From: Podarcis liolepis | Lineage: Eukaryota | Strand: one strand, 5' to 3' | Length of the DNA: 64,000 bases | Assembly (NCBI GenBank): GCA_965112155.1 | Contig: OZ218098.1 | In this document: piece after piece, positions 1,583-34,640 of the stretch | Numbering within the stretch: the first letter of the stretch is position 1 | Layout: each line of letters starts with the position of its first letter | Translations under genes and position numbers: made by a program | The notes under the pieces: generated by a model | What the model was told of the DNA's origin: nothing | The model's input: only the letters and a program-made list of their open reading frames with translations | The model's database searches: none

Positions 1583-1930
<348 letters not shown>

Positions 1931-2470
1931 TAAATCCCACTGAATTCAATGAAGCTCCTCCCAAGTAAGGGTGCATAGGATTGCAGCCTTAGTTGAAATT
2001 CTCATAGATCTGCAATGTAATATCTCGACTCTTGGTTTGCATGCAAGTAATCCACAGGGCAGATTATAAAAGGTAATTCTGAACTCAGTTTTATTCTTGT
2101 GCTGTAGGAAATAATTTCTGCCTGTGAAATATATATTTATTGAGCGGCTTGGTGACTTAAGTCACCAACGCTCCCACCAAGTAGAATTAATTTATTTGGA
2201 GCACTTACAGAAATATTGGCATTCCATCTTGACTTTTGGATGATCTGCTGACATTTCCGATGTTGCGTCTCACCTATAATAGATATGGAGGTGTTAATTT
2301 TCTTTGTGGACATTAATCCACTTAAATGGAAATGTTTATTTTAATACCTACTTGTTCAGAAGAGGGCTGGATTTATCCTTTTGATTAACAGTGCACAGAA
2401 CTTGGCTTCTCTGACTTCAGAACGCTTTGTGTTTATTAAGGCTTAACAGCAGTAAGCTCGATTTTTCTAA

Positions 2471-2638
<168 letters not shown>

Positions 2639-4000
2639 TAATACTTAAAACTGCCATTTTTTCTGTTGAAGAGCCTCCTAGTTGGGCATTGTCTTTTCAT
2701 CCTTTCAGTGAAAAGGATTTGTGCTGAGAGAAGTCACCACTCTCTTTGGCCTGCTTTGCACAGCATGAAAACCCAAACCATGGCTTACTTACTGGGACTT
2801 TGCAAACATGCTAGCTTCCAGAACAAACCTTGGCTACAGACGGTGGCTAAGAAGGAGAGAGCTTAACCATGATCTTGGCTTAGCTGCAACACTGTGCTGA
2901 GCTAAAGGACTGGGGAAGAACAAAGTGGCTGCAATCTCCGCCTCCCCTCCCCTGAGCCAGTATATCTGCGCTAAGCTTTACTTGCAAAGTGGCCCTTCTT
3001 CCTCTCTCCTTACTAATCTTCACAAATACACATGTTCTTTGTTTAAGATACTCAATGGCCAGTGGTTACTTCTTATTTAAAAACCATTCTTAGACAAGAA
3101 ATTATTGAGGGTGGCTTTCTATAATAGAATGCTAAATTAAGTAGGTACTAAATTAACTGAGATGTGCCTTAGGAATAGTTTGTGCTTTGCATTTTTTGTC
3201 TGCATGTTCAAGTTCCAGACTTGCTCCATCTGAATTAGCTTCAGATTGGTTTTAAAACACACACACCACAACTGACTGTAGCTTCAGATCACATTGTACG
3301 TGCAGCTGTGCATATTTGTTTGGCTGTTGTTTTTTAAATTTGCCTACAGTCTGAGTACATGCAGGGGCATCTGGTCACAATCATAATACACATGGTTTTA
3401 AAACAATGTGTAGCTCCAGATCTGCTAGGTTCAGGTATAACTGATCTGTAATACGTACCCAATAAATGAACTTACTAACTTAGGGCTCCTCCTGACTTCC
3501 TTTTGAGCTACGTTTCTAGGCACAGTGGATGGCTTTGAGGTTTTCTTCCTGGGCCAGATCATCTCCCCTCTTTGAAATGGATCCAGTGGATCTATCACTG
3601 CCTACCCCCCCCCCCTTCGGCTCTGCCTCCACCCCACACCTGTAATACATCATTTCAGAGCCCTATACTAGTTACCACTGGAGGGAACACCACCAATGAT
3701 AGCTTCCCAACAGCCTGTGCTTTAGCCATATTGAAGATTTCTGCAATGGCCCCAGTCAGCGGAGGGACACCTCCACCTAATCCCACCAGCAGCACTGAGC
3801 AAGGGATTAGGATAGTTTTGTAACTGTGCTAAAAAGGAAACAAATTTATCTTCTGAAAGCCCTTAACACAGCTGGGCAGGTCTTCAGTTGGTGTTAAATA
3901 TTTAACTCAGTAGAGCTGCAGTGAATTATTCCAGCGACTCGGTTTTGTTTACCTGATCTCTGAAAAACCTGCAAGCAAAGCTCTTTTCCCCTTGAGATGA

Positions 4001-4348
<348 letters not shown>

Positions 4349-4894
4349 TGAGCCAACCAATCCTGCTCTTGATTAAACTGATGTTGGGGAGAAGGGTGCT
4401 AAACTAGTAGCACTGACTAGCCATGCAGATGTGTACAGATATTGACATACAACACTTTTGGCTAAAGCCTTCACTTGTGCAAATGACAGAGAGGGTGACT
4501 GATTTAACGTTCAGTAGCACAGTCTGGAACCTCACCGGATTCACCTTTGCTTAAGGCCCATAGTTTGCAGCCAAGACAGACTATTTTGACTGTGAGGAAT
4601 AAGGCCCTCACATAATGGGGACTGTCTGGCACATAAGGGGTTACAGATTTGAAGCAACAACCTTAAAAGTGTAGGAACAACACTGCAGACAAGTCTGAGT
4701 GGGCAGTCGCTGGAGCGTGCCAGCTGTTTAATTGGTAAGAATTACCAATTAAAGTAGATAGCATGACAATATATTTTTTATATTGTGATTGCCCTGTGAA
4801 CTGCCCTGACACCTCCGGGTATAGGGCAGTATATAAATTCAATCAATTAATAAGGAATTCTGTGTTAGAAGCAGTTTCTTATCAGCATTGTCTA

Positions 4895-5495
4895 AATGTG
4901 GGGTGGGAACCTGGGCTTGGGGCTGCATTGCTCCAGTGGAAAGCTCACCCCGCCCCCAGTTCCTTAAGTGATCAATGCAGATCAGCTAGGAAGGAGGACA
5001 TTTCCGTACCTACTGCAGTGCCAGGATGGGAATGTGAATCATTCTTTTTTCATTTCTCAGCTGATTGGCACAGACCATCTGAGGAGCATGGAGGGTCCGA
5101 TTTCATCCCCATTGCAGCCAGCTGGGTGGGGAGGTTTAAACCTCCAGTGCATGACAATAGGGATGAAAACTGCCTACCACTCCTTGGCTGGTCCACACAT
5201 CAGCTGTGGGTGATGGTGGTTTTCTTCTCCGTCACAGGGTGCCAGGCAGTTTAAACCTCTCTACGCAGGATACCTTGATCAGGAAGAACAGCTGATTGGC
5301 GTGCTGAGGAGCAATAGGCAATTTTCATTCCCATGTAGAGGAAAAACCTTCCGCCCAAAGTACCATTCGGTGGATGAAAATTATGCCCTCCCTACTTCTC
5401 TGATGGTCCACACCAATGTGCACACACCTGGGGAAGCCACGGGAGTGCTGTGGATTGCATAGGAAGGTCTAGTGGGCTGGATTAGGCCTACCCTT
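4895..5495. mobile_element. Old hAT-like non-autonomous element with internal inverted repeats (boundaries approximate)
   Basis: Repeated cagctgattggc...tttcatccc / gggatgaaaa...atcagctg units; 16-bp palindrome ggaggtttaaacctcc at 5130-5145. Confidence 0.4.
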
Positions 5496-5516
5496 GTTTT
5501 AAATGAAAACCTAGGT

Positions 5517-5582
5517 CAGCTTTCCCCAACCTGGAGCCCTCCAGATGTTTTGGACTACAACTCCCATTATCTGCAACCAGCA
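5517..5582. mobile_element. Half copy of the palindromic hAT MITE
   Basis: gccctccagatgttttggactacaactccca, as in the other copies. Confidence 0.6.
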
Positions 5583-5682
5583 TCGCCATGTGCTTCCTCT
5601 CCCTACTGGGCAGCACATTTTCCAAGTCTACAATCACTTTACTGCATTTTGACTAGTCTCCAGGTGCTGCTTCTCAACTTAA

Positions 5683-5895
<213 letters not shown>

Positions 5896-7075
5896 TAGTA
5901 GTGCCTGTAACTTCAGAGAGTTTCTCCATAGAAGCGAATGGAAACCAAGGCTCAGATTCTCCTTGTGAAACCACAACTCAAGTAAAAGTTTTTTAAAATG
6001 TGGCAGAGTCCGTTAACATTAAAGCGTTTGGGGACTCAAAGGAAATGCTAACACAAACGTTTAAAAACCTTATCTCTTTGATTTTCAAACCCTTCTCAGA
6101 TTTAATAGAAATGGCCACATTAACCTAATGAGCCTCTGTGAGAGTAGCTAATGGTTGTGGGGTTGTTTGTTTGTTAAACTTGATTACATGCCACTTCCTA
6201 GCAAAGCTCTTGTATGTTATCCACCCCTTAGAAAATGTACAATGATAACTCATTGCAGTACAAATATTCTACATGTGTAAGCTCACAGGTCAGGTATCGC
6301 TGTCAGTAAGCCTCTTGTTCAGGCCACACTGTCTGTGCTTCACGTTCTTCCTTCTGGATTGTTCTTAAGGTTTTTGCCTCAAAAAGACCAAGGCTAACCT
6401 TGCATGGAACAATCTTCAGCTCAAGCCACTGATTCCAGGCAAAATACTGTTATGTCAGCAACAGCACAAAGGAAGACATCTGGCTGCACGGAATGGCTGT
6501 AAAAAATGTAGTCACCTCATGCGCTAATAGTGTGTAGCTTTTAGGCGTGCTCTGTCAAGTCCTCTATCTCACTCGCATTTTAATGTAGCTCATATTCACT
6601 ATGGGAGTTGTTTTTGTTTGTTTTTTACAATTTAGAAAATACAAAGGCAAGTTAATGTTGCGTCATATCTCTGGGTAAACGTCTAAGTGAAAGACAAAGG
6701 TCTAGTTTTCAGTGCAGGGAGCATCAAGCAGGAGACTTGGTCCAAGTTCTGTTGCAAGGATAAACTTTTGGACTAAAAATGGCTGCAGAGTTGGGGCCAC
6801 TCTAAACTCGCATGTTCTTCTAAATCCAAGGCTCCTCTAAGCGCAAAGATGCTTCAGCAACAGGATATTCCAAATGTGTCCAATGCTTCTCTGCAGTCCA
6901 GGTGGCTCACTAAATGTTTTGCTTCTAAACTTGTTGAAGAAAATGTAATTGTTTCTAATGAAAAGCAGTCTTCAAAGCAAACATTTGTCCCTGGCATGGT
7001 CATGTTTTGTGAGAAAGAAGTGCCAAAAGAAAAAAAGAAAAGGCAGCATTAGCACAATACGAAATGTGAACACAG

Positions 7076-7284
7076 TATCTAACCTTGTGCACTTTTTATT
7101 TCTTCCCCTGTTTTATTTCCTGCATGCCATTCTCCCCCCCCCCCAATCTCTCTCCACCTGCTGCATGGTGCACCTCCTCCTCCTCCTTCTCTCCTTGCCC
7201 CTTTCTTGTTCTCCTTCTCTTCTTTGTCTTATACCACCACCCCACTGGCACTGCATGCCCTGCTGGCTGGCGCACTGCCTAACC
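7076..7284 (+). promoter_or_regulatory. AG-exclusion zone and distant branch point of the NM exon
   Basis: No AG from 7076 to 7284; ATCTAAC with branch A at about 7082; pyrimidine tract; three TGCATG motifs. Confidence 0.75.
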
Positions 7285-7286
7285 AG

Positions 7287-7367
7287 GACCACTCCGGCAC
7301 ACTTGGCCCCGAGGAATTCAAAGCCTGCCTCATCAGCTTGGGTTACGATATTGGAAACGATGCACAG
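7287..7367 (+). CDS. ACTN1: ACTN1 alternative NM exon (Ca2+-sensitive EF-hand; [27 protein letters not shown])
   Basis: aaccag| acceptor, CAG|gtactg donor, 81 nt; matches the known non-muscle exon. Confidence 0.96.
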
Positions 7368-7405
7368 GTACTGAATGCTAGCAAGGAACTCAGGCAAATA
7401 TCAAA

Positions 7406-16587: not shown

Positions 16588-18289
16588 ATCTCTGAGGCCA
16601 GAGAACCGCACACATCCTTTCTTAAGATCCCAGCACATTGGTGCTCTCTGCTCACCTGTAGCCTGTCATTTGGTGGCATGGAAGTAAAGAAGCAAGCTTC
16701 CAAGTAAGCCCTTAATATTATGACTAGGTGAAAATGTGTAACAGATTTCTGTGGTATTTGTCATGTACACCGAGAAATGTTTGGAGTCCACCCAGTTCCA
16801 CACCGGCTACTCTATCAGGGCAACAGCTCCCCAGGGTTTCAGACAGGCACCTTCCCAGACCTGCCTGGAGATTGGGAACTTCAGCATAGCAAGCAGCACT
16901 GTGGTCATTCCCCAATGCCTATAAAAACAAGGCCACCTTTGTCAGTCACGGAGTACTTGGCTGCACACGTTGGTGAAAAGAAAAGGAGCCATTTGTATGC
17001 AGGGAATCAACAAGAGATTCTTATCACAGCCAATTAATATAAACTTTGGCAAAGAAGAAGCCACTTAATTGTGGTTGTGCTATCACATGCTGCATTAGTA
17101 CAGTCTGTGACTGGCAGGACCTATGTGGGCTGTACATATTTTATGGGCTAATAGCCGTAAATAAATAAATGAAATGAAATATGTGGGCCAAGTGAATGTT
17201 ACACCACACACCAGTTATTACATTTATTGTCCATTTGGCACAGTAGTGATATGAAAAGTCTCTGCCCATCCTCAGCTTACGCAATGGTTTGCAATGGGTT
17301 GGGAAAAACCAATATGGTGGCATCCTTTTATGGAGCAACCTGCTATGTATGTGGCAACCAGTTATGTTTTGGAAAGCCAAGGTTTAGGTTTATTAACTTT
17401 GTATATTGCTCCCCACTAAAAAAACCCCCGAAGTGATTTACAGTAAAAAAAAATGCAATGAAGAAATTTTAAAAATGGTATTTAAAAACTGATGTAACAA
17501 TATCATACAATATCACTGACGTTGCCGAAATGCCTGGGAAAACAAAACTGTCTATGCCTCGTGCCAAAACTGGGGAAACCATTCCTCAGAGGCCACGTAC
17601 CTCAGAAAGATCTGAAGTAGTCTTGTTAAAACAAAGCAAAAAAATCTTCTGACCTATTTTGATAAGGAAATGCTGTGTTGCATATTTAGCTTTTAGTGAT
17701 GTGGAAATGTTGAAAAGCCTGTGTGCCAACTGTGTTCATTAATATGTAATGAGGCACAACATCTTGGTTCTACTCCCCCCACCCTGTAATCTTTCTTGCA
17801 CAACATTTAGCCCAGATCAAAATATCAGACAGGTGACAATTCTCGTGCATTTGCCTTCCTGCGCCACCCTCAAAGCATTAATGCAAAATAGAGAGAAAGG
17901 CATTTTATAATCATTTGAATGAAATTGCTTTGTTTTGATTTAGGCTCTTGGTCTGTGAGCATCTGCAAGGGGGGCAGTCACTCCCTCTTCCCTGGGATGA
18001 ACCACAGTCACTAGATTCCCAGCTTTTTTCTTTTTTAAAAGGGTATAGTTATATAGAGCTATATAGAATCCCATCCCCCACCCCTTCCCCAAGAGCTAGG
18101 GGCAAGTAACAATATATTTATTATTCTGCCATGCCTCTGGTAATTATATAGCTACAGTATTATAAACAAAAGCCCTTTGTATCACTTCAGGAAGAAAAGA
18201 ATTCAAAGTAAGCATTTTTTTTATGGCTTGAAAGCACCCAACTGCAGCGAAGGATAAGGACCTTAGCTTGCATACGTAAACACTGTGCA

Positions 18290-19160
18290 CAAGGAGAGCC
18301 CGGCAGCTGCTCTGGATGAATTAGCCTGGCAGAGAAGCATGGTTTGTATCCCCGCCCGCACTGACGTCCCGAAATGGCGCAATCGCCATTCGCGAGAGCC
18401 GATTGCCTAAGCTCTCTCCCTCGGAAGGACAACACCTCCCGGCCTGCCTCTCTACCAACCCCCGCTCTCCACGAGGCCCCTTCGCAACGGCAGCCGCCTA
18501 CAACTCCCAAGCGGGGCAGCGGACCCTCCATTCGCGTCCAGCAAAGGCGTTCAAACCGCGGCCTCTGGCGCGTTGCCTTCTGGGAGTCGCAGTCCGCAAG
18601 CCGGTTGGAGAGAAAGGGGGCTTTGCGCAGCCGCAGCCGCCTTCTCCGCGGCTCCTCCTCAGGGAAGTAGCGCCGCCATTTTCTCTGGCGGACTGAAGCG
18701 AGCGTCGCGTCCGCACACGGGAGGTAAGCGAGTTTAGTTGGACGCTGGCACCGCCGGCGAGTGCGCGGTTTTCCTCACCCGGGAGGGGGGCCGAGCCGGA
18801 GCAGGGGCGGGTGGGAGAGCGAGGCGGCCCGTGGCGTCGGGGGATAAGAGCCAGCGGGCTCCGTTTTATCTGCTGTGGTAAACGGAGCGGAGCCAGGCTG
18901 CGAGGCCGAAGCTCCGCCTTGCCTGGGCCCTGCGCGGCGCCCGTTCCCTGCATTGGGTCCCGGGTGAGGACTCCCTCTCCCCACATCCCCCCCCCAGGCG
19001 CCCCCTCGTCTTCGTCTCCACTTCTCTCGAGCCTCTGCCGTTAACACTCTCGTTCTTTGCCCTTCCCTTTTCCCTCCCTGCCTTCTGATCCCGAACCGCT
19101 TTTGCATCCCTCCAGATCGGGCCTTGCAAGCGCATCTCAGCAGCCGAACTTTTCATCCAT
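18290..19160. promoter_or_regulatory. CpG-island promoter of the SRSF5-like gene
   Basis: Abrupt GC/CpG enrichment; CRE-like TGACGT at 18362, YY1 cores at 18373-18390 and 18672-18682, ZNF143-type motifs at 18498-18509 and 18581-18595. Confidence 0.9.
18670..18723 (+). other. SRSF5A: Non-coding exon 1 of the SRSF5-like gene (start approximate)
   Basis: YY1 motif GCCGCCATTTT followed by a strong donor GAG|GTAAGC after 18723, inside the CpG island. Confidence 0.7.
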
Positions 19161-19769
19161 TTCCACTCAAAAGGTAATGATTGAGACGGACGATGAAGGA
19201 GCAGATTTGTTTTTGTTTTTAACCCTCCTCACGATCTCTCTCTCTGGACATTTATATTTTTGTGTGCACGCGAAAATGTCTTTATTATTCCGCCCCCCCG
19301 CCCCTGTTTTTTTTGGTAGGTATGAAAAGGAGGCTGAACGGCCTCTGATGCAGAAACATCATGAATCCTAAACTTGTTATCTGCTAAGGTGTTGCCTTAT
19401 CTACTACCAGCTTCTTTTGGTGGAGCGTAGTGGCTTTTGAGTTACACAAGAGCTCAGCTTGAAGGGTTTCTATGCTCCAACACCAGTGGGAGTTGGCGCC
19501 AAGTGAGAGATGGTTTTAATTATTTATTTCTATGCAGTGGATGTTTGACTACGTTTTGAGAGTGTGCATTGGGTACATTTGTGATAAAACTATACTCTAA
19601 AGTTGTTTGCATCTATATTGGCGTGATATAGTGTTTTAAGAAGTATGTTTTAAACACTGTCCTCAGTTGTCTCTTCTGTCCAACATCTGTGGGACTGAAT
19701 TTTAGTATTGATATAATAAAATACCTAACGTGAACACAAAAACTTAATTTCTTTGCAGCTTAGGCTAAA

Positions 19770-19895
19770 ATGAGTGGCTGTCGTGTCTTCGTTGGACGTC
19801 TAAGTCCACATGCTCGGGAGCGAGATGTGGAGAAATTTTTCAAGGGATATGGCCGTATACGTGAAATCAATCTGAAAAACGGCTTTGGTTTTGTG
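19770..19895 (+). CDS. SRSF5A: SR splicing factor 5-like (srsf5a-type), first coding exon (MSGCRVFVGRLSPHARERDVEKFFKGYGRIREINLKNGFGFV), RRM1
   Basis: ATG in aaaATGa context; RNP2/RNP1 motifs; MSGCRVF start typical of SRSF5; donor GTG|gtaggt. Confidence 0.93.
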
Positions 19896-22071
19896 GTAGG
19901 TATATGCGTATTTAAATATTTTCCTCCCAATCTAGATGACTGTAGGCAGTTACATTGTAACATACAAATCACAGGAAATCTGATTAGGCAAAATATCAGA
20001 AATGTTAAACTTCCATCTTCTCTTTAACCTTTTAGATCTTTCTGTAAATGGCTCTTAATATGTGCAAACTTCCTCTTTGAAATTGCTAATATGGTAAAAT
20101 GGAAGGCTGCTTTTTAGGTAAGAATGAAATAAATTAGCTTTGCAATTAATCATAGCCGTAGGTTGTATATGCCATGGTTCCCTCACCTGAGCCTCTCCCT
20201 CCAACCCAACATTTCTCTCTGCTGCCATTACATTTTCCTTCCTCCCCCAAACTCGCAAGAAAAATAAAAATATGGAACTTAAACTTAAGGTAAATACTCA
20301 GGATGGTTGGTTAACACTCAAAGTTTTAAGTTGGGGAGGGAAGGGGAAAACTGACAGCTTTCTTAATAGAGGTGAACTAGCCAGGTTTGTGTGGTTCTCT
20401 TTTTGTACTGGAATTCTCTGTTACATGTACAAAACAAGAGAGCATACTCTGAACACAAATTACTACATCTTGAGGGATTCTTAGTATTCAGAAATTCCAG
20501 CAACCATTAGGTGATCCTTCTTTCAATGAGAAAGAAGCCAGCCAGTTCTGCTTAGGTGGGAAGCACAACAGGTTTGGTGGGACTTGTGTCGTCTTTCTGA
20601 CCCATGCTATCAAGCAAGAGGAGAGAGGAACACAGAAGGAAAAGCAGCAGTCTTCTTTTCTGTATTTGCCTATCCAAGCAAACTCAGTGGGGCTGTGGGG
20701 ACTTGCATTTTCTCTTCTCTTGCTAGGCAAGCTAGGCAACTTGCCCCTTTGGATCTGCCTAGCTGGGGTAAAGGATACTTGGATTCTTTCTTCCTCTCTC
20801 TGAAATAGACAGATAGGGAACAAAAGTCCACCCAACTAGTGCACATCCTACCAAACAGAGGATGATAAAGTTCCATTTTGGGGGCAGCATGTGTGACTTT
20901 ATTCCCCCACTCAACAAGCAGGAGACAGGGAACCTAGCTTGCAGCTGTTTTTCCTATGCTGGAGGGGAGAGAAGTAGTTCCATGTGCCACCTCCAAAATG
21001 ATAGGTAAACTGAGCAGAAATCTTTTCTGCAAGGCAGGAAGTTGAATCCCACAGATGGGGTCTTCAGAGCTCATGAACAGTGTTAGACACTGAGATGTGA
21101 AAGCTAGGAGTTAAATGGCACCTTAAGCCTAAGGTTATGGGCGCCACAACAGAATGTCTAGATAGGTGTTTTTTATACAAAGCTGGAAATTAATGAACTG
21201 CAGCAAAAAAATCATATATTCATTTTACATATGGTTTCATCCTCATCTGAAGACTGCAAAAAACAAAGCTATACTTCCTGCCCGCCCTCCTAATATTCTT
21301 ATTTGGTTCACTCCAGTCTTCAGAGAGTGGCTGGAAGTGGGGAGACAGAAAAAGGGCTTTCTTTCTTTCCACTTTGCAGACAAGCCCTGGATTCTTCCTA
21401 CACCCCCTTTCCTTCATATAAATAAATCTTTTTGGCTCCACAATTAGCACACATTACAGGCCTATACAACCGATGGCAGAGACACCCACCTTGAGTGTCC
21501 AGTTCACAAACCTAAGACTTCATTGTCTTTCAATGATCCCACTCCAAAATTGGTTTCGATTTTAAGCATCACTGTGAGAGTGAGGTAGATAACACTTTAA
21601 AATGCACTACTTAAACCAAACCTATTTAAATCAATCTGAGGCTATAAAGTGCAAAACTGCCTTTCTGTAAGGCCAGCTGAGGTGGAACCTCTCAGCTTTC
21701 CTGTACTGATCTCTTGGAAGTCCAGCAGGGAGGATTTTCTCCTCCCATGCCCTCAGTGCCAGCAGCGGCAGTTTTAATCTTAAATATTAGGTGCAGCACT
21801 GCACCCAGATCTCAGAAACTGCTCATACTAATGAAATTCCCTGTCGCAAAACGTGCCTAGAACAACGGGAGTTTTGAACGCTGCTTATGGAGGTTGCATA
21901 CGTAGGCTGCGTTCACCCATCACAATAAGCAAGGATTGATGGATTATAATGGTATACTGTGAATGCACTGTGCTGGTACCTGCAGCCTGATGTCTCCCAC
22001 TTCACTTATCTCTTGACATGATAGAGAAAGGGAAAACCAGGAAGCTGCAGTTGTTGTGACTTCAGATATGG

Positions 22072-22167
22072 GATCCTGATTTGTTGTTCCCAAACAAGCC
22101 AGCATCACTGCAAGCCTTTATTGGCTTGCAGATCCTGACTTGTTTGGGAACTACAAACCAAGGTCTC
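22072..22167. repeat. Inverted repeat from a degenerate MITE in SRSF5-like intron 2
   Basis: ttcccaaacaag...ctgcaagcc / ggcttgcag...cttgtttgggaa. Confidence 0.55.
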
Positions 22168-23513
22168 TAGTTAGATATCACAGAAAGCCAAGCCTATCTA
22201 CAGCTTCATGGGTTACTTCTCCACTCACATCAGGAAAAGCAGTCAGGCTTAATGTACCACCACATTGCTTGCTCACCGTGAATCATAAGCAAATCTGGCT
22301 TCTTGTGGGAACACTGACATGGTTGTCTTGCCTGGAGGCAATATTTACTTGCCCCAGGTGAGTGGTCATTTTTCTTTTGACTTACACCATCTTCATTACT
22401 AGATTTGCCCATATTTTCTTTTGACCATAAGTCTAAATCACAGCAGCAAACAGCAGAACTAATGCTTTATTCAACCTGCATGCCATTATGCAGAATGCAC
22501 AGTTCTCCAAAGCTTGCCAATTAACTTCAGGCATAGGTGGATGAAGTGGGAAGCATAGGAAAATATCAGGTGTTTTTGTAGTCCCAGACCACTCTGTTAG
22601 GCAGCTGTAGCATATTGTGTGAGGCTGTTTGGTCTGAAGACTGATAGGAATTCATCACTAAACCACTTCTCATCCTGTGTGATTTGACAGCATGGCATGA
22701 CAGCATAGGCGTGCATGCTGCTGGACACAGTCAACCTGTATCATGAGTCCATTCTCATAATAGCACATCATTTCACCTGTATTTGGCAGATTCCTATATA
22801 ATGAACTTGCATTGTACAATGGCATGAGATGTTACAGTAGAGGCAAGCATTCTACTGTATTAGGTGTTGGTGGTCTTCTATTTTATGTTTTATTGTTTTT
22901 CTTATTTAAAATATTTCTACCCTTCCCTATATTTAAATATTTCTTTTAGACTACAGAGCAGACACATGTAGGCTAGCTAAACTAATGTTCCACAAATGCC
23001 TAAGCAAACAGATGTTTTAGAAATTTAATGGTTAAGTAGGTAAGTTTTAATTTGTTATTGAAATGAGTCAGTAGCTTCTGTACCTCAGGGGGGAGGGCAT
23101 TCCTGACAAGACCCATTGCCATGTTGCCACAGAAAAGTATCTCCTGCCAGAGGAACACGTAATATGAACTCCACAGAACTTCAAGCATGGGCAGGCTGGT
23201 TTAGGGAGAGATGACCCTCCTTTAATTAGTTTCCAAGTTAGGGTTTACAATTATTGTTAACTTTCTCACATATTCAGTACTCTTGTGCTGATATATACAA
23301 GTTGGGTCTAATACATCTCTAGAACCACCTGAGCATGTATAGCCTAGCCCACTTACTGAGATCATCTGGAAGAGCATTGTTAATTGCCCTCTGTGTTAGA
23401 GTCATGACTGTAATAAGCTGGAAAAAGGAATGGAAAAAAATCCCCTATTAGGGCAATAAGATTTCACTCTTAAAGAACTGAATACATGATTCATTCCTTC
23501 TTTTCCTTCTTAG

Positions 23514-23584
23514 GAATTTGAGGATCACAGAGATGCAGATGATGCTGTTTATGAACTGAATGGTAAAGAACTGTGTAATGAAAG
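23514..23584 (+). CDS. SRSF5A: SRSF5-like exon 3 (EFEDHRDADDAVYELNGKELCNE-R)
   Basis: ccttcttag| acceptor, AAG|gtaatc donor, 71 nt, in frame with exon 2. Confidence 0.94.
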
Positions 23585-23597
23585 GTAATCTTTAATT

Positions 23598-23660
23598 ATC
23601 ATAGAATTGTAGGGTTGGAAGGGACCCTGAGGGCCATCTAGTCCAATCCCCTGCAAAGCA
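23598..23660 (-). mobile_element. CR1 LINE 3'-end fragment
   Basis: Reverse complement reads ggactagatggccctcagggtcccttccaaccctacaattctatgat, the CR1 3' terminus. Confidence 0.75.
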
Positions 23661-25214
23661 CACAACTAATTGCAGATAAATTGCAATTATGTCTGCTGCA
23701 AGTAAATTGGATGGTCTGCTGCATTTGATTTTTTAAAAATCTCTAGTGTGCTGCTTGTGGGCGCAGAAGGCTGGTAGCAGATCAGGATGCAGGATTACCG
23801 CCTTACTTTTTCAACTGCTTTCTTTGAAACTGAAGAGCAGAAAAACTGGTGCCTACTGTTAACAAAAGAGACCTCACAAGAAATAGGGCTTCCTTTGTTT
23901 TTGGCAGATTACTAACATCTGTTAATCCTAGATTTGACTCCCTATATTGATCAGAGCATTCTAATTTGTGTAGTTTGTAAACCTACCAAATATACAGTGT
24001 TTTGTCGGGGGCAACTTACCCTTTCTATCTTCTATGCCTATTCAGTCTACATATATGCCTTACTGAGACACTAAAAGGTTATATATTTCATTTTTTCAAC
24101 AGAGGCAAGGGGAAAGTTTGCACTCAATAAAATACTTTTTTTCAGCTTCTCAAGAGTGGAACTGGTTTTCCATATGTTGTAGTTTGACCTCTGCACATCT
24201 TTGGGTTTGTTTTATGGCTGACAGCTACCAGCAGCTTCATTCATTTAACTCAGTCTTTAAATACCTTCTAGAGTCAGTTCTTCATAAAAGGGAGGAGTTT
24301 TGCAATGAGAAAAGCTAAGTCTTAATTTGCACAACATCCTTTTCTCCCCCATGAAACTATATTCCTGGGCATCATGTGTAATTTACCAAAAGCAACTGGA
24401 CTAAAATTACTATTGTAATTTCAGAAATAAAGTCATTCTAAGATTTTTCTGTTTTACTGAGTTTTCTAGTATTTGTATTAAATCTACATTGCAAACTTTA
24501 AAGAAATACAGGCATCCATAATTCACTTGCCAGGAACTCTTTGCCAAGATGCCCAGCAGTGTGCATGTATATGCACACTCTTCCTAAACTCATTTGCACT
24601 ACAGGTTGGAGAAGGTAAGAAATAGGGATATTTTCATGTGCAAGATGTCTTCCTCCTCCAGACTAGGCAAGCATTAGAGTTTAGGAGGGAGTTGGAGTCT
24701 TGCCTGTGTATGCAAAGACTTGGTAAGCTAAGAAGAATCAGGCGTGTCTCTCCTGCTGCTTCTTAACCATCTTTATTCCCCAGCAGAAATGAGAAAAACA
24801 CCTGCCACCCCCACCCAGCTGCTTGTATATGCAGGGTTGGTGGTAAGCACAGCTGTTGCTTTGGCCTTCTCGCTAGCCTCTGTCAACCCCCAAACTAATG
24901 CAATTAAAAAGCTGGAAGAAATAGGCGATTCTCTCATATTCGGTCATCTTAAATTGTGTACAATATATGGATGTATGAGGAAGTTAAGATTTTGCAAAAA
25001 TGAGAGGGTTTTTTGGTTACACACGTCTGAATAGACAAATATTTGCTTCTGTTTTCAAGTACCCCAAAATAGCTACATTTCATTTATAGAAATGCTTGGA
25101 GGAAGATGCCTATTTGCTTTGTGTATGTTTCCAGTAGAAAAAGATTGATGTGCTAAAGAATCTATGTCTATTTTTCATTTAATATTAATATTTCATTTTC
25201 ATTTAATATTAAAG

Positions 25215-25307
25215 GGTTACAATTGAACATGCCAGAGCCCGAAGAGGGGGTAGAGGCAGATACCCACAACGGTTCAATTATTACCAATCCTATGGGGGTG
25301 GATCTAG
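25215..25307 (+). CDS. SRSF5A: SRSF5-like exon 4 (VTIEHARARRGGRGRYPQRFNYYQSYGGGS), RGG linker
   Basis: AAG| acceptor (phase 2), TAG|gtaaga donor, 93 nt. Confidence 0.92.
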
Positions 25308-27224
25308 GTAAGAAATATGTTCTTTTTACTGCAAAGTCACTTGTTAAACAGTTAATTTTAGACTATGAACATTCTCCATACACTCAGGATTCTTAACAGT
25401 TCACATTTCTAGGGGTAGCTGCATAACATTTTAAGGTGTTCTTAATGAGCTGTGGTTATTTTCCCAACCTTTCATTACCTTTTTAGTAAGACCAATACAA
25501 GGAATCTTATGCTAGCAATCTTTTCATTGAAATTGCTGAATTCCATCTACCACCTTCAACTATAAGAAGGAGAGGTGTGTGCTGTTGAAGTCATGAATTA
25601 TTGCTGCACCTTGCCTAGTGGGTGTATGGTTAGCACTTGATAGCTTTCATGCCCATTAATATAATTATGATGCACAAGTAGTGTACTCTCACACCAGCAG
25701 GCAGAGTTTGTTATAGTTTGGTTTCAGCCTGTAGTACTTTGGTCCTGTACAAGTCTTACTGAATGGAATGGGCTTTGTGTGACTAGTGCTTCATGGACTG
25801 TGCCCCTCTTTGCTTAAACTTTGGCTGGGAGCCTAGGGGACTATAGACAAGAACTACTTGTATAAGTTAGTTGTGCTCCAAGGTCAGTAGAACCTACGAC
25901 AAAGCAAATATGACGTCTACATAGAAGACACTATAAGGCCAATATTTGTTTGAAATACACAGTCATTATAGAATGTATTTCTGTGATGCATGTCGGACAG
26001 TATATGTGAGGAAATAGTATTTTAAAATATGTTTCTCTCACATTAAACTATTTCACTGTGTCTACTACAAGCTGCTGTTAAGACATCTGTTCATGAAATT
26101 GTTTAGACACTGTATTGATAATTGCTTTTAAATAAAATTTGCATTTTTGCATTTCATTCAGAGGCAGCCTTCTTGCCGTTCTCGTGCTAAACAGAAACCA
26201 AACACATTGGAAACTACTAATTTTGCATATTGAAGTATGCTGTTTAGATTCTCTTTTCTTTAGTGCAGTGATGTTGCTGCAGTAAGAGTGATCCAAGGTC
26301 GAGGCTAAAAGTGAACTTTACTAAAGTAGGATATGTGACTGACGTTCATGGGCATCTTGCATGGTAGTTACGTTCATGACATCAGGCACATGGTGCCAGA
26401 CAAGAAGAGACTACTATTTCCAGTAGTGAAAAGTGGGACTCGGCCTTCCAGTTGGGGGATTCTGGAACTTCTTTTAAATGCTCTGAAGATCTGGATATTC
26501 TGAAAATGTGGGGCATTTAGAGGTATGCAAATGAAATGGAGTTGCCTCTGCTTAAATTTCCAAAAGATGCACTTGTTGTTGGTTGAATTTCATATTATAT
26601 AAAAGAGCCATCATTTGGAGTGGATTTTGGTAGCTAGCCTGAACAAACTAATGTACAGTTCTCCAGTTGTTCATACTAGCACTTTATAATATTTTGGGGT
26701 TTGATGACAGTAAGCCAGATCTTTTATTCATGTAAAATTAGGTAGATAGTGCATCAGCTCCCACAGCTTATTGAAGTACCATAGTGCTGTAGTAAGCATG
26801 CAGTCTCCACAGCCTCATCCTCCTGGGGTGATTCATGCCTGTATGTTCATCATTTGATGTGTGTTCACAGCATGTAGGGTCTTTGAAAAATGTTATGTTA
26901 GGTGATAGCTTTGAAAGCTGTTTATATGCTGGCTGTTGCACACATGGAGGTCATTGACTGATGAACACACTTGCATGAACTGCCCCATAGTCATTTAGTG
27001 TGTGTCTTGCAGTTTGTGTATATATTCCACTTGCCTTCCCTATTACAGACAATAAGCAACTGCCCGGTAGCCTTTCCCCTCATTTAAATAAAACACAGTC
27101 AAATTTCTAAAACATTTTCTGGTTTACTGAGCAATCTGAAGCAATCTGTCCCAGCATAATGCACTTTCATTTTCCGCATGAAGTATAAATGAACAAATAA
27201 TGGAAAAATGTGTTTCTCTTGTAG

Positions 27225-27297
27225 CCAGTATGGACCACCTCTTCGTACTGAACATAGGCTTATAGTTGAGAATCTTTCTTCACGTGTTAGCTGGCAG
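27225..27297 (+). CDS. SRSF5A: SRSF5-like exon 5 ([25 protein letters not shown])
   Basis: cttgtag| acceptor keeps the frame (73 nt); CAG|gtgagt donor; start of the pseudo-RRM. Confidence 0.92.
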
Positions 27298-30200
27298 GTG
27301 AGTTGGAGTTGACCTTAAATACTTCTTTCTTCTCAAAAACAAGTCGTCCCCTTGAAGGAGACACCATAAAATTTAACTTTGCAGCTAAAGCAGTCAGAAC
27401 ATTTTTATTAAAACTCGGGCTTAAAGTTCTTTGATTTGCATACCAAAAAATAAGCATTTAAGCAGCATGTTTTTATTTTTAAAACTGAAGAGCTGATTAG
27501 TGTTTCTTGGACAACTATAATCCTCATCTAATAAGAATTGTGAAAAATCTATTTTAAGACATAATCTTCATAATTAAAGGCATGTCTCAGTGGGAAGGTC
27601 TGTAGTTTGTATCTGGCTTCAATAGAATGAACAGAATGACTGCATGGTTAAAAGAACTCTGTGTTCATAATGCAGGAAATTTTATGTATTACTTAATTCT
27701 AAAAGAGGTTTGTGGCTTTCATTGCATAGCTAGTGTGTGTGTTAAATAACATTCAACATATACATAACTTCACATTTAAGTATTGCCTCTATTTGGTTTC
27801 CTTGCAAAGACAATGCTTTTTTACTCTTCCTTAACTGTAAGGGGTACATGACTAACATAAACCTGAAAATTTCATGCCACAAATTAGTTTGCTTTTCAGG
27901 TGCCCACAGGACCCTTGTCTTAGAACACCAATTTCACATGCAGATTCAAAATATTTATGCTGAAATTGGATAAATGAATCCTCACTTTCAATATTTCAGC
28001 TTTCTGGCAGCTGTTTCTGGCATGTTTTCCATGCAAGTGTGGATGTGCTTGGGTAGGGAGAAGCCTATGTATACCATCTTGAGTGAAGATTATTCAAGTA
28101 TTTTACCAGGTGTATACTGGAAAAATTTGCTATCATTTGCTAGGTGGCACTTAGTCTGGCAGGTTTGCTATACCAAATAATCCCTGAAGTTCATTTTGAT
28201 TCTACTCTTTAGCAAGGCAGCAAGTCTTCAAAGTACACCAGCTTCTGTTATCATTAGCCAGTGAATCTTTAGCTGCTTCACATACCTTTCATTCTAAATA
28301 TTTAGTTGTGAAACAAAAAATGAGATTTAATTGAGCCAGGAAGTAGTGTTAAATATAGAATGTATTTTTATTAGATTTATTTATAATAGGTTTAGGCAAG
28401 TAGCATATTGTCAACTTAATAATCTGCTTTAAATTAGGTTATGGTAGCCTTCATTTTTAATAATATCTATGTGTATATCACTTCCTACAAAGGAGGAATC
28501 TGCAAACTAAAGACTTATTTTCTGCTCTTTGGCTTGCATGTATGCTAACATTTGTTGAGGCCCTGAACAATATTTCACCTATTAACTTCTGGGTATAATG
28601 GTTGCATCCACAGTGAAGACTAATTTTTTTTTATAAAAAAAGCTGATTCTGGTGTCCTGAGTTCTCTTGTAATTTCCTTTTGACTAGTTGCTGTTGTGCT
28701 TAAATGAGGGGCAATTATTACCTTGATCTTAGCACTACTGTCATCAGTGCATGATTTGTCACTTTACCTAACCTCAGTTTTGTCTTCATTTTAATTTGTA
28801 AATTTCAACATGGGGAATGCCTAGCTTTTTAACAGTGCTCTAAACATGTGTTCGTCGAACAGGGCTTTCTTTGGAACCCGAAGGAAGAAGGAAAGGGTAG
28901 GAACAGGTAAATAATTGCACAGTTCAGGAGCAAGATAGCTGTCAAGAGAATAATTGCAACAAACTATTTAGCATACTGCACAATAGCCTTAGCTGAAAGT
29001 AAAGAAACAGGGCTTACTAATATAGGAAATAAACCTGACGCAAGTTAGCCTTTGTTAGCTGATGTAGTGAACTGTAAGAATAATGAAGAGCTTAGTGTAG
29101 GATGGAGAGAAGTTCACATGGGTGATGAAGGGAAGCCTGGCGTATGCATTTGGAGTTCTCTATTTGTGTGGAAATACAGAACTCAACAGTTGAGTCCACT
29201 GTAGAACAAAATACATATATTGAACTACTTGTGTAATTTGACAGGATTAAAATTGCTGCCTTTCCAATAAGTTGCGCAGGGCAACCTACAGAGAAGTATA
29301 AAACGTGAGATGCATAGGGTACCAGTTTTTCAGTCATTTGACTTATGATCCTGAAGTCTTTTGATATCAACACAGGACTTTTTCCATAGATCAGCATTAC
29401 AGATCCCTTTTTGCATTTTAGAAAAGTTTATAAAATAACTGGGTGGGCCTGTTGTTTGGCAATTTATTATTAAGTGCCTAAATTTGAACCAGTCTCTCTC
29501 AGTCATACGAGAGGCATGGGAAGAAATAACTAAAGGGAGGAGAGTTGAACACACGCGAGTCCCGATACGTAGCATTTGTTTTACAAGTAGCTGTGTGGAA
29601 TGACCCACTGGGAAAAATCCTGGGTATGAGTCCAGTGCCACTTATTTTTAAGAACTACTCAATTGTATCTAGAGGCCATCTCACTGAGTATTCAGTTTCC
29701 AATAGAAGCCAGCCAGATACCTTCATGCTCTGCTTATATATTTCTCAGAGGCAAAAACACTTATTTTATTCCCAATATCAAAAGTATACTGTCTCTAAAC
29801 ATGAAGGTTCCATCTGTCTACTATGAATAGTCTTTCATTTATTTGGTCCCAGCCAAGTTTCAGTTGTCATTGGTTATAAATGCATGTCACTTTTGTGGCG
29901 CTTCATTCTGAGGCTTGTATCTCACAAAATTTCCCAGTACACTTTCTGGTGTTGGTAAATGCTGTACTTGTATTGTCATTTGCAGCCATTGGGAAAGCTC
30001 ATCAGGTCATTTGAGACCAGCATGTATGTGCTCTGGTGGGCTATGTCTAATACAGCTACACTGATGTTGCCTGGTGGGTGGGTGTATGATGATGTGGTGT
30101 GGTTCTTAATTTAATGGAAAATTCACTGATGTTCACTGATGTGATAGCACTTCCATCGCTGCTTTTAGACTGCTGTTTATGAAAAGCAGCTTGTATGAAG

Positions 30201-32076
30201 GCACTTCAAACCTTGCCTGGCTCTGCAGAGGTGAAATTAAAAATAGCCAGAACCATTTAGTAAGGTACTTCACACAACATCTTGCTGAGTGGAGCAACTT
30301 CTGTATGGTTCTGTTTTGAACATCCACGGTTCTGTATCCAAGTGAATGAATCAGGCCTTGGAGCAAATTAAGGCAAGGCAAGCAAACAAGGCATGTTTCT
30401 GTTCTGAACAGCATAAAAGTCATCAATTTGCCCCTGAGGGTTTTACATCACAAAGCAACATTTTCTGTTCAAATCTGTTTTGCTGCCATGATACAAACTA
30501 CCTGCTGGTTTATGGGAAAGTTGTATATGCTTTTGGGATAGGTGAGATTACCATTTGTATGAGAAACACTAAATTATTGCAGGCATTGGTTTATCTCAGA
30601 GGTTACTTAGTGCTTACAGAAACATGTTTTCTGAAAACATCATGACTTTATCCTGAGGAGATTCTGGCAAATGTTGTGATCAGAAACAAAAAAAATTGCC
30701 ATGCTGCTTCCATGGCCATTTCTTTGCCTTCACTAACTAGTACATAATGTATGCCTGGCTTCATCATTTCCATAAGCTTTGAATAGTAACAGGAAACACT
30801 TTTTAATGCATCCTTTCCCATATCAATGAAAAGCTGTTTTCAAGGTCCATTGAAATCAGTTTCTGGTTGTCTTGTCTACCTTAGTGGGATTTTGAAAACT
30901 AATACTCATCTGCTCACTGTAGCAGTCGCCCTCAGATAAGTGCCTGTCCTGTGTCTTTTTACTAGCCCTTTAAATTTAGAGCGAAAAGTGGCAAAAGTGT
31001 ACAACTGGGAGCAGTAGCGCAGGCAAGGTTTAAGTTGAGCTGGATTGTGTCCTGATGTTCAAAACTTACTAACTAGCATCTCATGTTCCTAGCATGCAAC
31101 CAAGCAAGCTTTAAGATGAGAGTGCATACATCTTCTTTTGAAGGCCAGCACATTCTGGTGTTTAAAAGTGTTCCAATCTCTTCCTCATTGATTATGACTT
31201 CCAAAATCTAGAATCCCAGTAACTTTTAATAGCACATAGTTTTTACTGCTGATTTCCCCCTAATGGCTGCAAGGTCTCCATAAGCCTAAAGCTAGGAAAC
31301 TAGATCCCTTGGCTTTCTGTGGAAAGGTGTTGCTATAAGCTACTTTAGTCTTCTAATCTAAGGTTCTTCTAACTAAGTTCTCAAGAAACATATTTGAGCT
31401 ATGAACATCTGTACAGACTATTTTGCTTGATGTTTGTAGTGTACGTAATCTTACAATAGACAAGAAATCAAATTTCAAATACATGGTATGGTTGTATTTT
31501 TAAACTTAGATGCCTGCCTTTATAGGTTTATTCACCTGTACTATCAAAGCTAATTGAATTGCATAAGGATTAATGAAAATGTTTTTTTGGCTTTGTCTCC
31601 TATTTACTGTGGATATAATCAGTTTGAAGTATTGTGAACATCATTTTGTATTGTATGATGTGAACTTTGTATTGGGGAGAGTTCAATCCTACAGATGCTG
31701 AGTACCCTGATCTTGGCATGCGCAAAACATTTGTGCTCATTGTGTGATTACAAATTTCACCATCACTAGATTTTACATGTTAGAGGGTGTGCATGCATAA
31801 ATATCAAACAGAATTTGGGCTGGAGTGCTCAGTATGTTGTAGAATTGAACCCTGCCATCAAATGTCTGCTATTAAACTTGTTTCATGTTAGGTTAAAGGC
31901 TCAGGTTTTCAGACTGTTTTATTCACATGTTAGTTTGTAAAAACTAAATTGAACTTTATTAAACACTAAATTAATTGAGGCATCCTGTAAACTGTAGCTC
32001 AGTTTTAGGCTTTTTGTTTGTATTTTTTTTCACAAATATATATCTAACCAAGTTCATTTTGAACCTCTTTTAACAG

Positions 32077-32467
32077 CCTTGCTTTGGGTTAGCCCTCGTT
32101 TCTCTTGTGTGGAGGAGAAAGAACCCAAGAGGTTGGGGTTCCTAGTGGCTGAATTTCTAGGGCTTGGCCTGTTCTGAGTTTTCCCTTTGGTACCCATGAC
32201 ACACCTATCTTGGCGATGTAGATCTTGGTTGGCCCACAGCTCGATTGGCTAGCACAGGTCAACCTCAGGTTCTAGAGCCGCTTCCGGAGACTGTGTCCAG
32301 TGCTTTCAGGGTCTCTGGTACATCTCCCTGAAGCACATTGCTATGGTCCATTCCTCTGTCCCTCCCATGTAAGGGAGTTCCTCTTGGTCTGCTAGGCAAT
32401 TATTGGACAAGCGACTCTTTGCTTAAGGTACCTGCTTATATCATCTGACCACTTGTGGTATGTTGTG
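32077..32467 (+). other. SRSF5A: Candidate poison (PTC) cassette exon in intron 5
   Basis: Branch-like TCTAAC at 32043-32048, ctcttttaacag| acceptor, in-frame TAG at 32143-32145, donors after 32427, 32457 and 32467 (GTG|GTAAGT); GC-richer island inside an AT-rich intron. Confidence 0.65.
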
Positions 32468-33053
32468 GTAAGTAGCCTATGGCTATAAAATGTCAGCTAT
32501 TCTTTGGGGCACTTTGTAAAGGTTAAGAAATAAGTCATAAACAACTTATTTTAAAATATCTTTAACACTTAGTTGTGTAGTGTTGCAGATAGACTCAAGC
32601 TCAATTACATTAAATGCAAGTCTCTGTTAAAATAACACTGAGGTTGTGACACGAACTGATGAAAGCAGAAAAGTTGTGCTTCTGCCTTTTGACAGCTTGT
32701 GACAGAATCTTAGCATTAACTTAATAAAGACATTTGTGTTTAATTTGTATAGACAAGAGGAAGAATGTTTGCAGGCAAACCTTTTAATATACAAGTAAAC
32801 TGAGACTTCATTTATGATCAAATGCTTGCATTTAATAACACCATTTGTGACATAGTTAATATATGTGGTAATCCTTTAAATGGTATGTTATATTGCCATA
32901 TCTGAACAATGTGATTAGCTTAATTTTTCTCATTATAGCTGTAATATATGGGAGTTTACTATAATTGTTAGCCATAACAAGGAGACCTGTTTAAACGCGA
33001 TTTCTTTAGTTCTATGCATCATTTTCTAAGCTGAACTGTGACTTTTACTGCAG

Positions 33054-33127
33054 GATTTGAAAGACTTCATGAGAAAGGCTGGAGAAGTTACCTTTGTAGA
33101 TGCACACAGGAACAATCCAAATGAAGG
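33054..33127 (+). CDS. SRSF5A: SRSF5-like exon 6 (DLKDFMRKAGEVTFVDAHRNNPNE-G)
   Basis: tactgcag| acceptor, |gtaaga donor, 74 nt; completes the SWQDLKD signature. Confidence 0.95.
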
Positions 33128-33528
33128 GTAAGATTTGAACTTTGCACCCAAGGTAGTTAGCTTGATTGGTTCCCAACACAATGACAGTGGTGTTAGTGTT
33201 GTTGCAACATACACAGGATCAGTAGAATAAAATGAAGCACTATACTCCTGTGCACTTCTATTTCCAGATTGGTTGCCGAGGCAACCATGCCACATTCTAT
33301 TTGGCTAGGAATAAGTGATCATGTGGAAGTTCTAAGGAAGGTACATGGAGCTTTATGTCACAATCTGAAATTAAGGATTTGGGAAATTCACACCAATGTT
33401 TACTATAACGCTGTTAATTTGAATATGAGCATTGAAGGAGGGCAGGATCATTGCTCTTCAGTAATCTAAGTAGAAAATAAGCTCTATAATATTTGAACTT
33501 AAATGTCAATTTTGTTTTGGCTGTGCAG

Positions 33529-33639
33529 TGTGGTGGAGTTTGCATCATCCAGTGACATGAAGAGTGCATTGGACAAGTTGGATGGCAGCGAGTTGAATGG
33601 GCGCAGAATTAAGCTAATTGAAGATCGCAAAAGGCGCAG
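33529..33639 (+). CDS. SRSF5A: SRSF5-like exon 7 ([37 protein letters not shown])
   Basis: ctgtgcag| acceptor, CAG|gtatgt donor, 111 nt. Confidence 0.95.
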
Positions 33640-34390
33640 GTATGTCACCATATATGAAGATCTGATGGACTTGACAAGAAACATGGCAATCAGGGCAGGG
33701 GGTGGGAAGCAAGATGTTAGGAAAATGTTGCTGCCCCAAACCTTCTCAAGGTACAATTGAACTGGATCTCTGCCCAAGTATTTCCATGATGGGAACCACA
33801 GGTAGTGACAAAAAATGCAGGGTGACAACACTTGGTATAAACAAATAATTTCTAAATTTTATAACTTTATGGAGATAGCCAGAGTGATCCCCTCCCCAGG
33901 TTTGCTAGACTCCCACTCCCATAAGCCCCAGCCAGCATGGTCAATTGGCAGGAAAGGGAGATGGAGGACACCACCTTGGCGACCCCAGTGTATGTAGTTA
34001 GAGAAATTAGAATTAGAGAAAATGGAGTACAGGCTGAGGGATCTGTATTATGCCTGCTTTCTACACCAAGCAAGCTTGTTTACTGTACAGTGGTACTGAG
34101 ATAGGGATCAAAAAAGAGCCTTAAAATTCTCAAGATTTTTTGTAGACATTGAAGTATGAGAGGGAGTCAGGGTGAAAAAGATACTTTGGGCTGCAACATT
34201 GCCTGTTGGATGAACAGAAGTCAAAGGTTCCATGTTTCTCTAAAGTTAGAGGAGAAATACCACTATAGATGGCATTTTAAAAGACGACCCAGTTGTGTAG
34301 TAGGAATATGCAAGACTGGGTGCAAAAAAATTATTTATGAATATGAATACTGGATATAGACTCTCATAAGATCTGTTCAATCTTTATCAG

Positions 34391-34640
34391 AAGCAGATCC
34401 CGTTCACGGAGTTATTCAAGATCTCGCAGCAAGTCTAGATCTGCAAGATCTTCCAAGTCAACAAGCAAGTCTCGTTCTCGAAGCCGTACCCCTGAAAAGA
34501 GGGGCTCTCGAAGCCGCACACCTGAAAGGAAGGGCTCAGAGAAAAACCACCACTCTGGCCCGCCAAATTCCTCTCCATCTCCTCCCCCAGCCAAGAAAAG
34601 GTCTCGCTCTAGGTCGAGCTCTGCTGAAAGCCGCAGTTAA
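34391..34640 (+). CDS. SRSF5A: SRSF5-like last coding exon, RS domain (SRSRSRSYSRSRSKSRS...RSRSRSSSAESRS*)
   Basis: tctttatcag| acceptor; RS dipeptides; TAA at 34638-34640; spliced CDS totals 798 nt (265 aa). Confidence 0.93.

Follow-up and report, generated by a model that had tools for sequence, protein, structure and literature searches.

Unproductive splicing in intron 5 of the SRSF5 family has been shown across animals and fungi (Lareau & Brenner 2015, PMC4379411). Table S1 of that study counts ESTs for the upstream junction, the downstream junction and skipping: chicken SRSF5a has 1/0/22, Xenopus krt5.1 has 1/0/30 and zebrafish SRSF5a has 11/4/176. Cross-regulation of SRSF5 by SRSF3 is cited in the same work. 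A poison exon is present in intron 5 of mouse and human Srsf5 (PMC10796970), and that of the mouse responds to Clk inhibition and Srsf4 knockdown (PMC4281565). In zebrafish, an srsf5a transcript subject to nonsense-mediated decay (NMD) rises from 4.5 to 320 TPM (~70-fold) in upf1 mutants (PMC7354994), total srsf5a mRNA is not raised in smg9 mutants (PMC11133409), and mutants have been described as viable (PMC5766196). With regard to temperature, SR poison exons under temperature control have been reported in a study whose main text does not contain 'Srsf5' (PMC7726792), CLK1/4 drive temperature-dependent splicing (PMC11346455), and carp srsf5a and srsf5b undergo a cold-induced splicing change (PMC7538616). 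The available text of a further preprint (bioRxiv 10.1101/2025.09.29.679313) has no bearing on the exon.

A preliminary description of the lizard locus considered here held that mammalian SRSF5 autoregulates through this same intron and that the poison element predates the srsf5a/SRSF5 duplication. The mammalian intron-5 poison exon is indeed published (PMC10796970, PMC4379411), but passages on its control (PMC4379411, PMC4281565) describe regulation by SRSF3, SRSF4 and CLK kinases and not by SRSF5 itself. The proposed age agrees with the occurrence of the event across animals and fungi, but is already published rather than a new inference (PMC4379411).

The srsf5a gene and its intron 5

The window, i.e. 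the whole stretch of 64,000 nucleotides of Podarcis liolepis that was analysed, contains on the + strand a coding region at 19770..34640, in which seven exons encode an SR protein of 265 aa built of RRM1, RRM2 and an RS tail. The coding exons, defined by translation and by tblastn with a gecko protein, are 19770-19895, 23514-23584, 25215-25307, 27225-27297, 33054-33127, 33529-33639 and 34391-34640. The encoded protein is identical to those of gecko and Hemicordylus at 259 and 261 of 265 positions, respectively, and Pfam RRM_1 was matched by two stretches of the 98%-identical gecko homologue. With two RRMs, SWQDLKD and a following RS domain, the gene falls in the SRSF4/5/6 subfamily of SR proteins. 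The helix that carries SWQDLKD is an RNA-binding one.

The gene is srsf5a and not its paralogue SRSF5. When the first coding exon was used as a query, the 120 proteins listed among 238 matches were all of srsf5a type by name or identity, and exon 2 shares 40-42 of 42 residues with srsf5a proteins compared with 34/42 for orangutan SRSF5. In a tree of 34 proteins, the lizard gene fell inside the sauropsid srsf5a set (97/91), itself within bony-vertebrate srsf5a (93/87), with SRSF5 forming a separate group (92/89) and support of just 60% for taking in the shark srsf5a proteins. Both types are present in coelacanth, birds and probably cartilaginous fish, and chicken SRSF5 and SRSF5a are listed ~0.43 Mb apart on chromosome 5 (PMC4379411, Table S1).

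Exon 5 (27225..27297, + strand) ends with SWQ at the donor CAG/GTGAGT, and exon 6 (33054..33127) starts with DLKD. Intron 5 (27298..33053, 5,756 nt) therefore interrupts SWQ/DLKD in phase 0, as an SRSF5-type poison exon would have it, and it corresponds to intron 5 of human SRSF5 judging from its position relative to that in PMC4379411 and from isoform tails, all of which start after SWQ.

Several other features of the window were observed. Upstream of srsf5a, the 3' exons of an alpha-actinin gene occupy ~1583-7400 on the + strand, and the frame 4001-4351 matches solved actinins (PDB search, E 7e-35); from synteny near SRSF5 we take this gene to be ACTN1. Pfam gave no match in four upstream frames, including the one identified as alpha-actinin by the PDB search. 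Judged by motifs, 18200-19173 would be a GC-rich promoter region and probably includes two exons without coding sequence, one with its donor after 18723 and the other at 19116-19173. Exon 4 (25215-25307, 93 nt) is frame-preserving and is missing in Crotalus, Bambusicola and Callipepla records, which reflects either an in-frame skipping isoform or annotation gaps. On the 3' side of the stop codon, five AATAAA motifs (34810, 35443, 35838, 35944 and 35960) suggest alternative 3' ends of srsf5a.

Truncated isoforms of relatives mapped onto intron 5

For comparison, we used annotated truncated isoforms, which are gene models, and their tails of 5-17 residues were back-translated and scored along the intron. 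From the 120 listed proteins, 93 with an organism name were used and 27 without one were left out. Sixteen of the 93 lack DLK after the SWQ pattern: six continue with a non-Val residue, four with Val, and six have no pattern match. Since read-through into the intron begins with Val, a non-Val continuation was regarded as spliced. When a search was restricted to lengths of 30-144 aa, it returned 44 matches, of which 25 organism-named ones were used and 19 unnamed ones were left out. Among them were SRSF5 isoforms whose Pro-initial tail is common to orangutan, pigeon, coelacanth and two frogs, as well as srsf5a isoforms from tuna and killifish; none of the 25 was a truncated isoform of a squamate. 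The only sauropsid srsf5a isoform found was the pigeon srsf5a-type isoform X2 (P0122) with the tail ILVCLGLISIG. The fish tails have a short motif in common, by which the fish register is fixed independently of the lizard.

The choice of scoring affected the outcome. Raw match counts with gaps allowed were abandoned because deletions were penalised unfairly. Ungapped back-translation seemed to favour 32077 (pigeon tail, 6/361 AG sites), with 32222 tied for the top in the same output, and the first nine codons of coelacanth SRSF5 placed 32077 at 1/361 AG sites, a length that was picked after looking. With gapped log-odds scoring, 32222 is the clear match and not 32077.

Anchored at an AG, the pigeon tail (11 residues and stop) mapped to 32222-32252 with 19 bits. 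This match was the best of 363 intron AG sites and of 4,345 on the + strand, exceeded all 4,557 on the - strand, and was reached by 0/200 resampled introns in each of three settings. The signal weakened under harder controls: without the AG anchor, shuffled peptides reached the score in 1/200 cases with the intron background and in 8/200 with the island background, the island being the GC-raised region described below. The first three and last four codons are exact across a 5-nt gap, each pattern occurs once in the intron, and the best start without the AG anchor was still 32222.

The fish tails taken singly were not significant, as 22-59 of 200 nulls reached their scores, and tuna and mudskipper ranked 215-219 and 14-15 of 5,594 positions, respectively. 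When placed in their own register, with killifish left of the stop and halosaur right of it, they peaked at TAG 32219-21, where the value was higher than at any other of 5,591 positions in the intron or of 63,835 in the window (either strand) and was reached by 0/100 resampled introns. Pigeon, killifish and halosaur tails jointly peaked at 32219 under both intron and island backgrounds, and their back-translated tails in register delimit a conserved core at 32180..32252 (+ strand). Our main argument is that three lineages agree on one 73-nt stretch within a 5.8-kb intron. Conservation among vertebrate orthologues was observed indirectly, through back-translated tails, and over ~73 nt only; the 32222 match and the fish register were spotted by eye or in scan output before testing, so that these controls are not blind. 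Since the core falls inside the interval of the preliminary description (32043..32473), it supports that finding.

In an unanchored scan of 18 segments, four had scores reached by at most 1/40 nulls: pigeon and halosaur in the element, and shad and notothenioid at 28520-28567. The latter two, a shad insert and a notothenioid N-terminus, are mutually similar fish gene-model segments that match best there (0 and 1 of 40 nulls). No adjacent acceptor was seen at 28520-28567; with 18 segments scanned, these matches could have arisen by chance, or they could mark another conserved patch. The Sinocyclocheilus tail was best in the candidate tile, with 3/40 nulls reaching its score, and was not used.

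The SRSF5 tails, which are also Pro-initial, ranked 32077 at 2-8 of 363 AG sites, with scores of only -6.5 to +5.6 bits, and with the island background they dropped to rank 330-633 of 5,594 starts. None had its best unanchored match in the element. Coelacanth and frog ranked 32204 second of 5,594 starts, a weak match obtained with the intron background, and bird and orangutan SRSF5 tails had no such match.

Candidate acceptors

The TAG at 32219..32221 (+ strand) aligns with the fish isoform stop through the tails, and its AG would be the acceptor equivalent to that of pigeon, with the exon starting at 32222. This AG (32220-21), 145 nt downstream of 32077, is most likely the acceptor as judged from the mapped tails. 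It has a 41-nt AG-free zone upstream, a TGAC with A at 32199 (-22) and a weak pyrimidine tract (55%). If it is used, the premature stop would be the TAG at 32273..32275, giving a 138-aa product, because the 5-nt gap relative to pigeon shifts the frame away from the TAG 32250-52 that is aligned with the pigeon stop.

A possible further acceptor is the AG at 32177..32178 (+ strand; stop at 32197). Killifish has two acceptors 30 nt apart, and the upstream one, the entry of its longer isoform, falls near this AG, which ranked 3/363 in two of three settings and adjoins the second-best unanchored start, 32180. Because Gln precedes the common fish tail, the fish isoforms imply a CAG acceptor; at the corresponding place in the alignment path, 32204..32206 (+ strand), the lizard has CCT and thus no AG.

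The preliminary description placed the acceptor at 32076, and the motifs and coordinates it quoted all proved correct when the sequence was read again. The site (32044..32076, + strand) consists of a CTAAC branch-like motif with A at 32047 (-29), a tract of 70% pyrimidines and a CAG, and is a consensus-like candidate. However, it is one among 15/363 intron AG sites that pass one simple filter, which is not beyond chance, and it was the best site for none of the srsf5a tails mapped: among ~363 AG sites, 32077 ranked 8-9 for pigeon, 5 for Astyanax, 13 for killifish and 105-208 for other fish. The 22-codon frame from 32077 does end at the TAG 32143..32145 (+ strand), which would be a premature stop with a 143-aa product if this acceptor is used, but in the one sauropsid isoform that was found, the exon begins at the counterpart of 32222, so that this TAG is not supported as the stop. 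Consensus and composition make 32077 a plausible acceptor, and its use as a second one is possible, though we give it somewhat less than an even chance. Alternatively, the exon may be preceded by conserved intron sequence at 32077-32221, by analogy with SR poison exons that have a conserved upstream intron with many weak branch points (PMC5959240).

The fish stop aligned with the TAG whose AG is used by pigeon, together with the lack of an AG at the place of the fish CAG, leads to a reading in which the fish srsf5a acceptor was lost toward sauropsids, the fish stop triplet became the 3' splice site, and 32077 was possibly added in squamates. This tentative reading, to which we give nearly even odds, draws on one bird gene model and short peptides.

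Donor side and premature stop

Splice sites were scored by plain consensus counts. GT sites directly follow 32427, 32457 and 32467, which the preliminary description took as three alternative donors. The GTAAGT at 32468..32473 (+ strand) is the sole GTRAGT hexamer in intron 5 apart from the constitutive donor, and is the most likely donor, with the exon ending at 32467. The sites after 32427 and 32457 agree with the U1 complement at 6/9 positions, as do at least 25/353 intron GTs. A site at 32368 that had not been listed before has a U1 score of 7, equal to that of 32467, and the site at 28906 scores 8; 32368, 32427 and 32457 are thus followed by weaker candidate donors (32369..32463, + strand). 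Among the three alternatives, only 32467 stands out, and the comparative evidence points to alternative acceptors instead.

The 10-nt tandem repeat described at the donors is present, with TTGTGGTA at 32453 and 32463 forming an 8-nt exact match of period 10, but it is ordinary for both intron and window: in intron 5, 3 loci have 8-mers that recur at period 10, the window has 65 such positions, and Tandem Repeats Finder at score 30 did not list the repeat. The simple filter is also passed by eight more acceptor-donor pairs of intron 5; such pairs include 28688-28906, with the best interior donor (28906), and 29749-30073, both without homology support.

For the downstream junction, no sauropsid N-terminal variant was found among 23 named vertebrate proteins, which were the ones inspected from a listing of 120, and there was no squamate isoform in the inspected part either. 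Five N-terminal variants (three sharks, one frog, one notothenioid) and the shad insert did not map to any of the four donors (best rank 9/354), and the best tblastn hit of the same variants (E 0.057) lay elsewhere. A 15.9-bit match of the notothenioid segment ending at 32227 ranked 4 of 13 tiles in local scans and was rejected. The shark srsf5a-type models P0176 and P0195 have a common long alternative N-terminus spliced to DLKD, which does not map to intron 5.

An mRNA is marked for NMD when its stop precedes a downstream junction by more than 50-55 nt. When six acceptors were combined with four donors, all 24/24 pairs gave a premature stop 278-507 nt before the last exon junction. By the 50-55-nt rule, NMD is therefore predicted, and every tested pair has the stop distance of an SRSF5-type poison exon.

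Base composition and other sequence properties

The stretch 32077-32467 is the GC-richest of its length (391 nt) in intron 5, with 50% GC vs 37% overall and 32-33% in the flanks. A two-breakpoint fit delimited a GC-raised island at 32074..32483 (+ strand), with a log-likelihood ratio of 22.5 vs a maximum of 9.4 in 30 permutations and edge intervals of 32048-32093 on the left and 32381-32524 on the right. The edges of the island fit the proposed exon, bracketing 32077 and the donors.

Rfam gave no match in the window at gathering scores, the folding of 32040-32480 was not beyond that of shuffles (z-score -0.35), no significant repeat was found in the element and no second copy of it within the window, and its SR-motif counts were uninformative. 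Downstream of the exon, ATTAAA (32609) and AATAAA (32723) are possible intronic polyadenylation signals (32609..32728, + strand) and are unremarkable in AT-rich DNA.

Discussion

Intron 5 of the lizard gene very probably carries the squamate srsf5a copy of the ancient SRSF5-family intron-5 poison exon, and this copy is very probably functional here. What is new is the species instance, as the event itself is already published for other vertebrates. The default would be joining of exon 5 to exon 6, which gives the SR protein of 265 aa, and a regulated share of the transcripts would have exon 5 spliced into the island. There, 32222 is the most likely acceptor, with 32077 or 32179 as possible additional ones. 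The predicted exon 32222-32467 (246 nt) would then be joined from the donor at 32467 to exon 6, its stop would commit the mRNA to NMD, and any protein made would end inside RRM2 without the RS domain. Inclusion would probably be set by SR-protein level and CLK phosphorylation, as in mouse Srsf5, with retention of the flanking introns and early polyadenylation as likely side routes. We infer inclusion in this animal, the choice of acceptor and donor, decay and SR-level or CLK control, the last by analogy with mouse Srsf5. The preliminary description of a cassette exon persisting here was right about the place and kind of the element, but did not establish its acceptor, stop or donors.

Three other explanations were weighed against this one. 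In its original form, the exon would start at 32077, stop at 32143-45 and end at three competing donors (32427, 32457 and 32467). The consensus-like branch point and acceptor, the GC step starting at 32074 and the high rank of 32077 for Pro-initial SRSF5 tails speak for it, but those tails score low and fall further with the island background, no srsf5a tail is best at 32077, and two of the three donors are ordinary, so that the full three-donor picture is improbable. Alternatively, the element could act mainly through detained or retained flanking introns or intronic polyadenylation, and not as a fully spliced cassette leading to NMD; the RNA would then be kept in the nucleus, or a stable mRNA would encode a truncated protein with RRM1 only. 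In chicken srsf5a, retention ESTs (3 and 7) outnumber junction ESTs (1 and 0), early-polyadenylated mRNAs are listed for frog SRSF5 and zebrafish SRSF5b (PMC4379411), and the detained introns of mouse Srsf5 are not NMD targets (PMC4281565). The poly(A)-like signals at 32609 and 32723 and the lack of a downstream junction in the relatives inspected are also in line with such a route. However, zebrafish srsf5a has four downstream-junction ESTs and an inclusion transcript that depends strongly on upf1, and the donor at 32467 is good; we consider this explanation unlikely as the main route, and since retention and polyadenylation coexist with cassette inclusion in known cases, they are an addition more than an alternative.

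The element could also be a decaying remnant or pseudo-exon, homologous to the ancestral poison exon but out of use in squamates, or else a patch that is GC-rich by chance, for instance a fragment of an old transposon. The fish-type acceptor is gone at 32204-06, the tract at the 32222 acceptor is weak, eight other intron pairs pass the same filter, and there was no squamate isoform among those searched. On the other hand, the core is similar to bird and fish tails and the rest of the intron is little similar, which indicates constraint; there is no second copy in the window, and weak sites are typical upstream of SR poison exons (PMC5959240). A remnant or chance patch is therefore very unlikely.

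The poison exon reading corrects the coordinates to be looked for, with a junction 27297-32222 besides 27297-32077, and adds squamates to the range of a published regulatory exon. A true acceptor shift would mean that selection preserves a short core and the regulatory effect as splice sites change place. It would amount to turnover of splice sites within an ancient regulatory exon, and the paralogue concerned is apparently absent from mammals. In the literature covered, which included few subscription papers and is weak evidence of absence, there was no account of the exon in a squamate or of such a shift. Given the CLK response of Srsf5, temperature-dependent splicing through CLK1/4 and the cold-induced splicing in carp, the exon may serve as a read-out for thermal splicing control in reptiles, and, if true, it would be a CLK- and temperature-sensitive switch in an ectotherm.

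Comparison with known systems

The SRSF5-family exon of Lareau & Brenner (PMC4379411) shares with the lizard element the gene lineage, intron position and phase, and a stop far upstream of the last junction. In contrast, Table S1 of that work lists no squamate, the element described here lies in a 5.8-kb intron and was read from DNA, and the splice sites differ between lineages. The canonical SRSF5 poison isoforms (orangutan P0127, pigeon P0123, coelacanth P0124 and frog P0128) have the same junction, a short tail and a stop, but they belong to the paralogue, and their sequence homology to the lizard element is at most suggestive. The zebrafish transcript ENSDART00000149400 (PMC7354994) derives from the orthologous gene and gains a premature stop by inclusion, and its upf1 dependence is experimental there; it was taken as an intron-5 event because Table S1 of PMC4379411 lists one for zebrafish. 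The entry point of other fish isoforms lies 15 nt upstream of that of pigeon. The pigeon isoform X2 is likewise of srsf5a type and is spliced after SWQ into sequence homologous to 32222-32252, differing from the lizard in frame and stop through the 5-nt gap.
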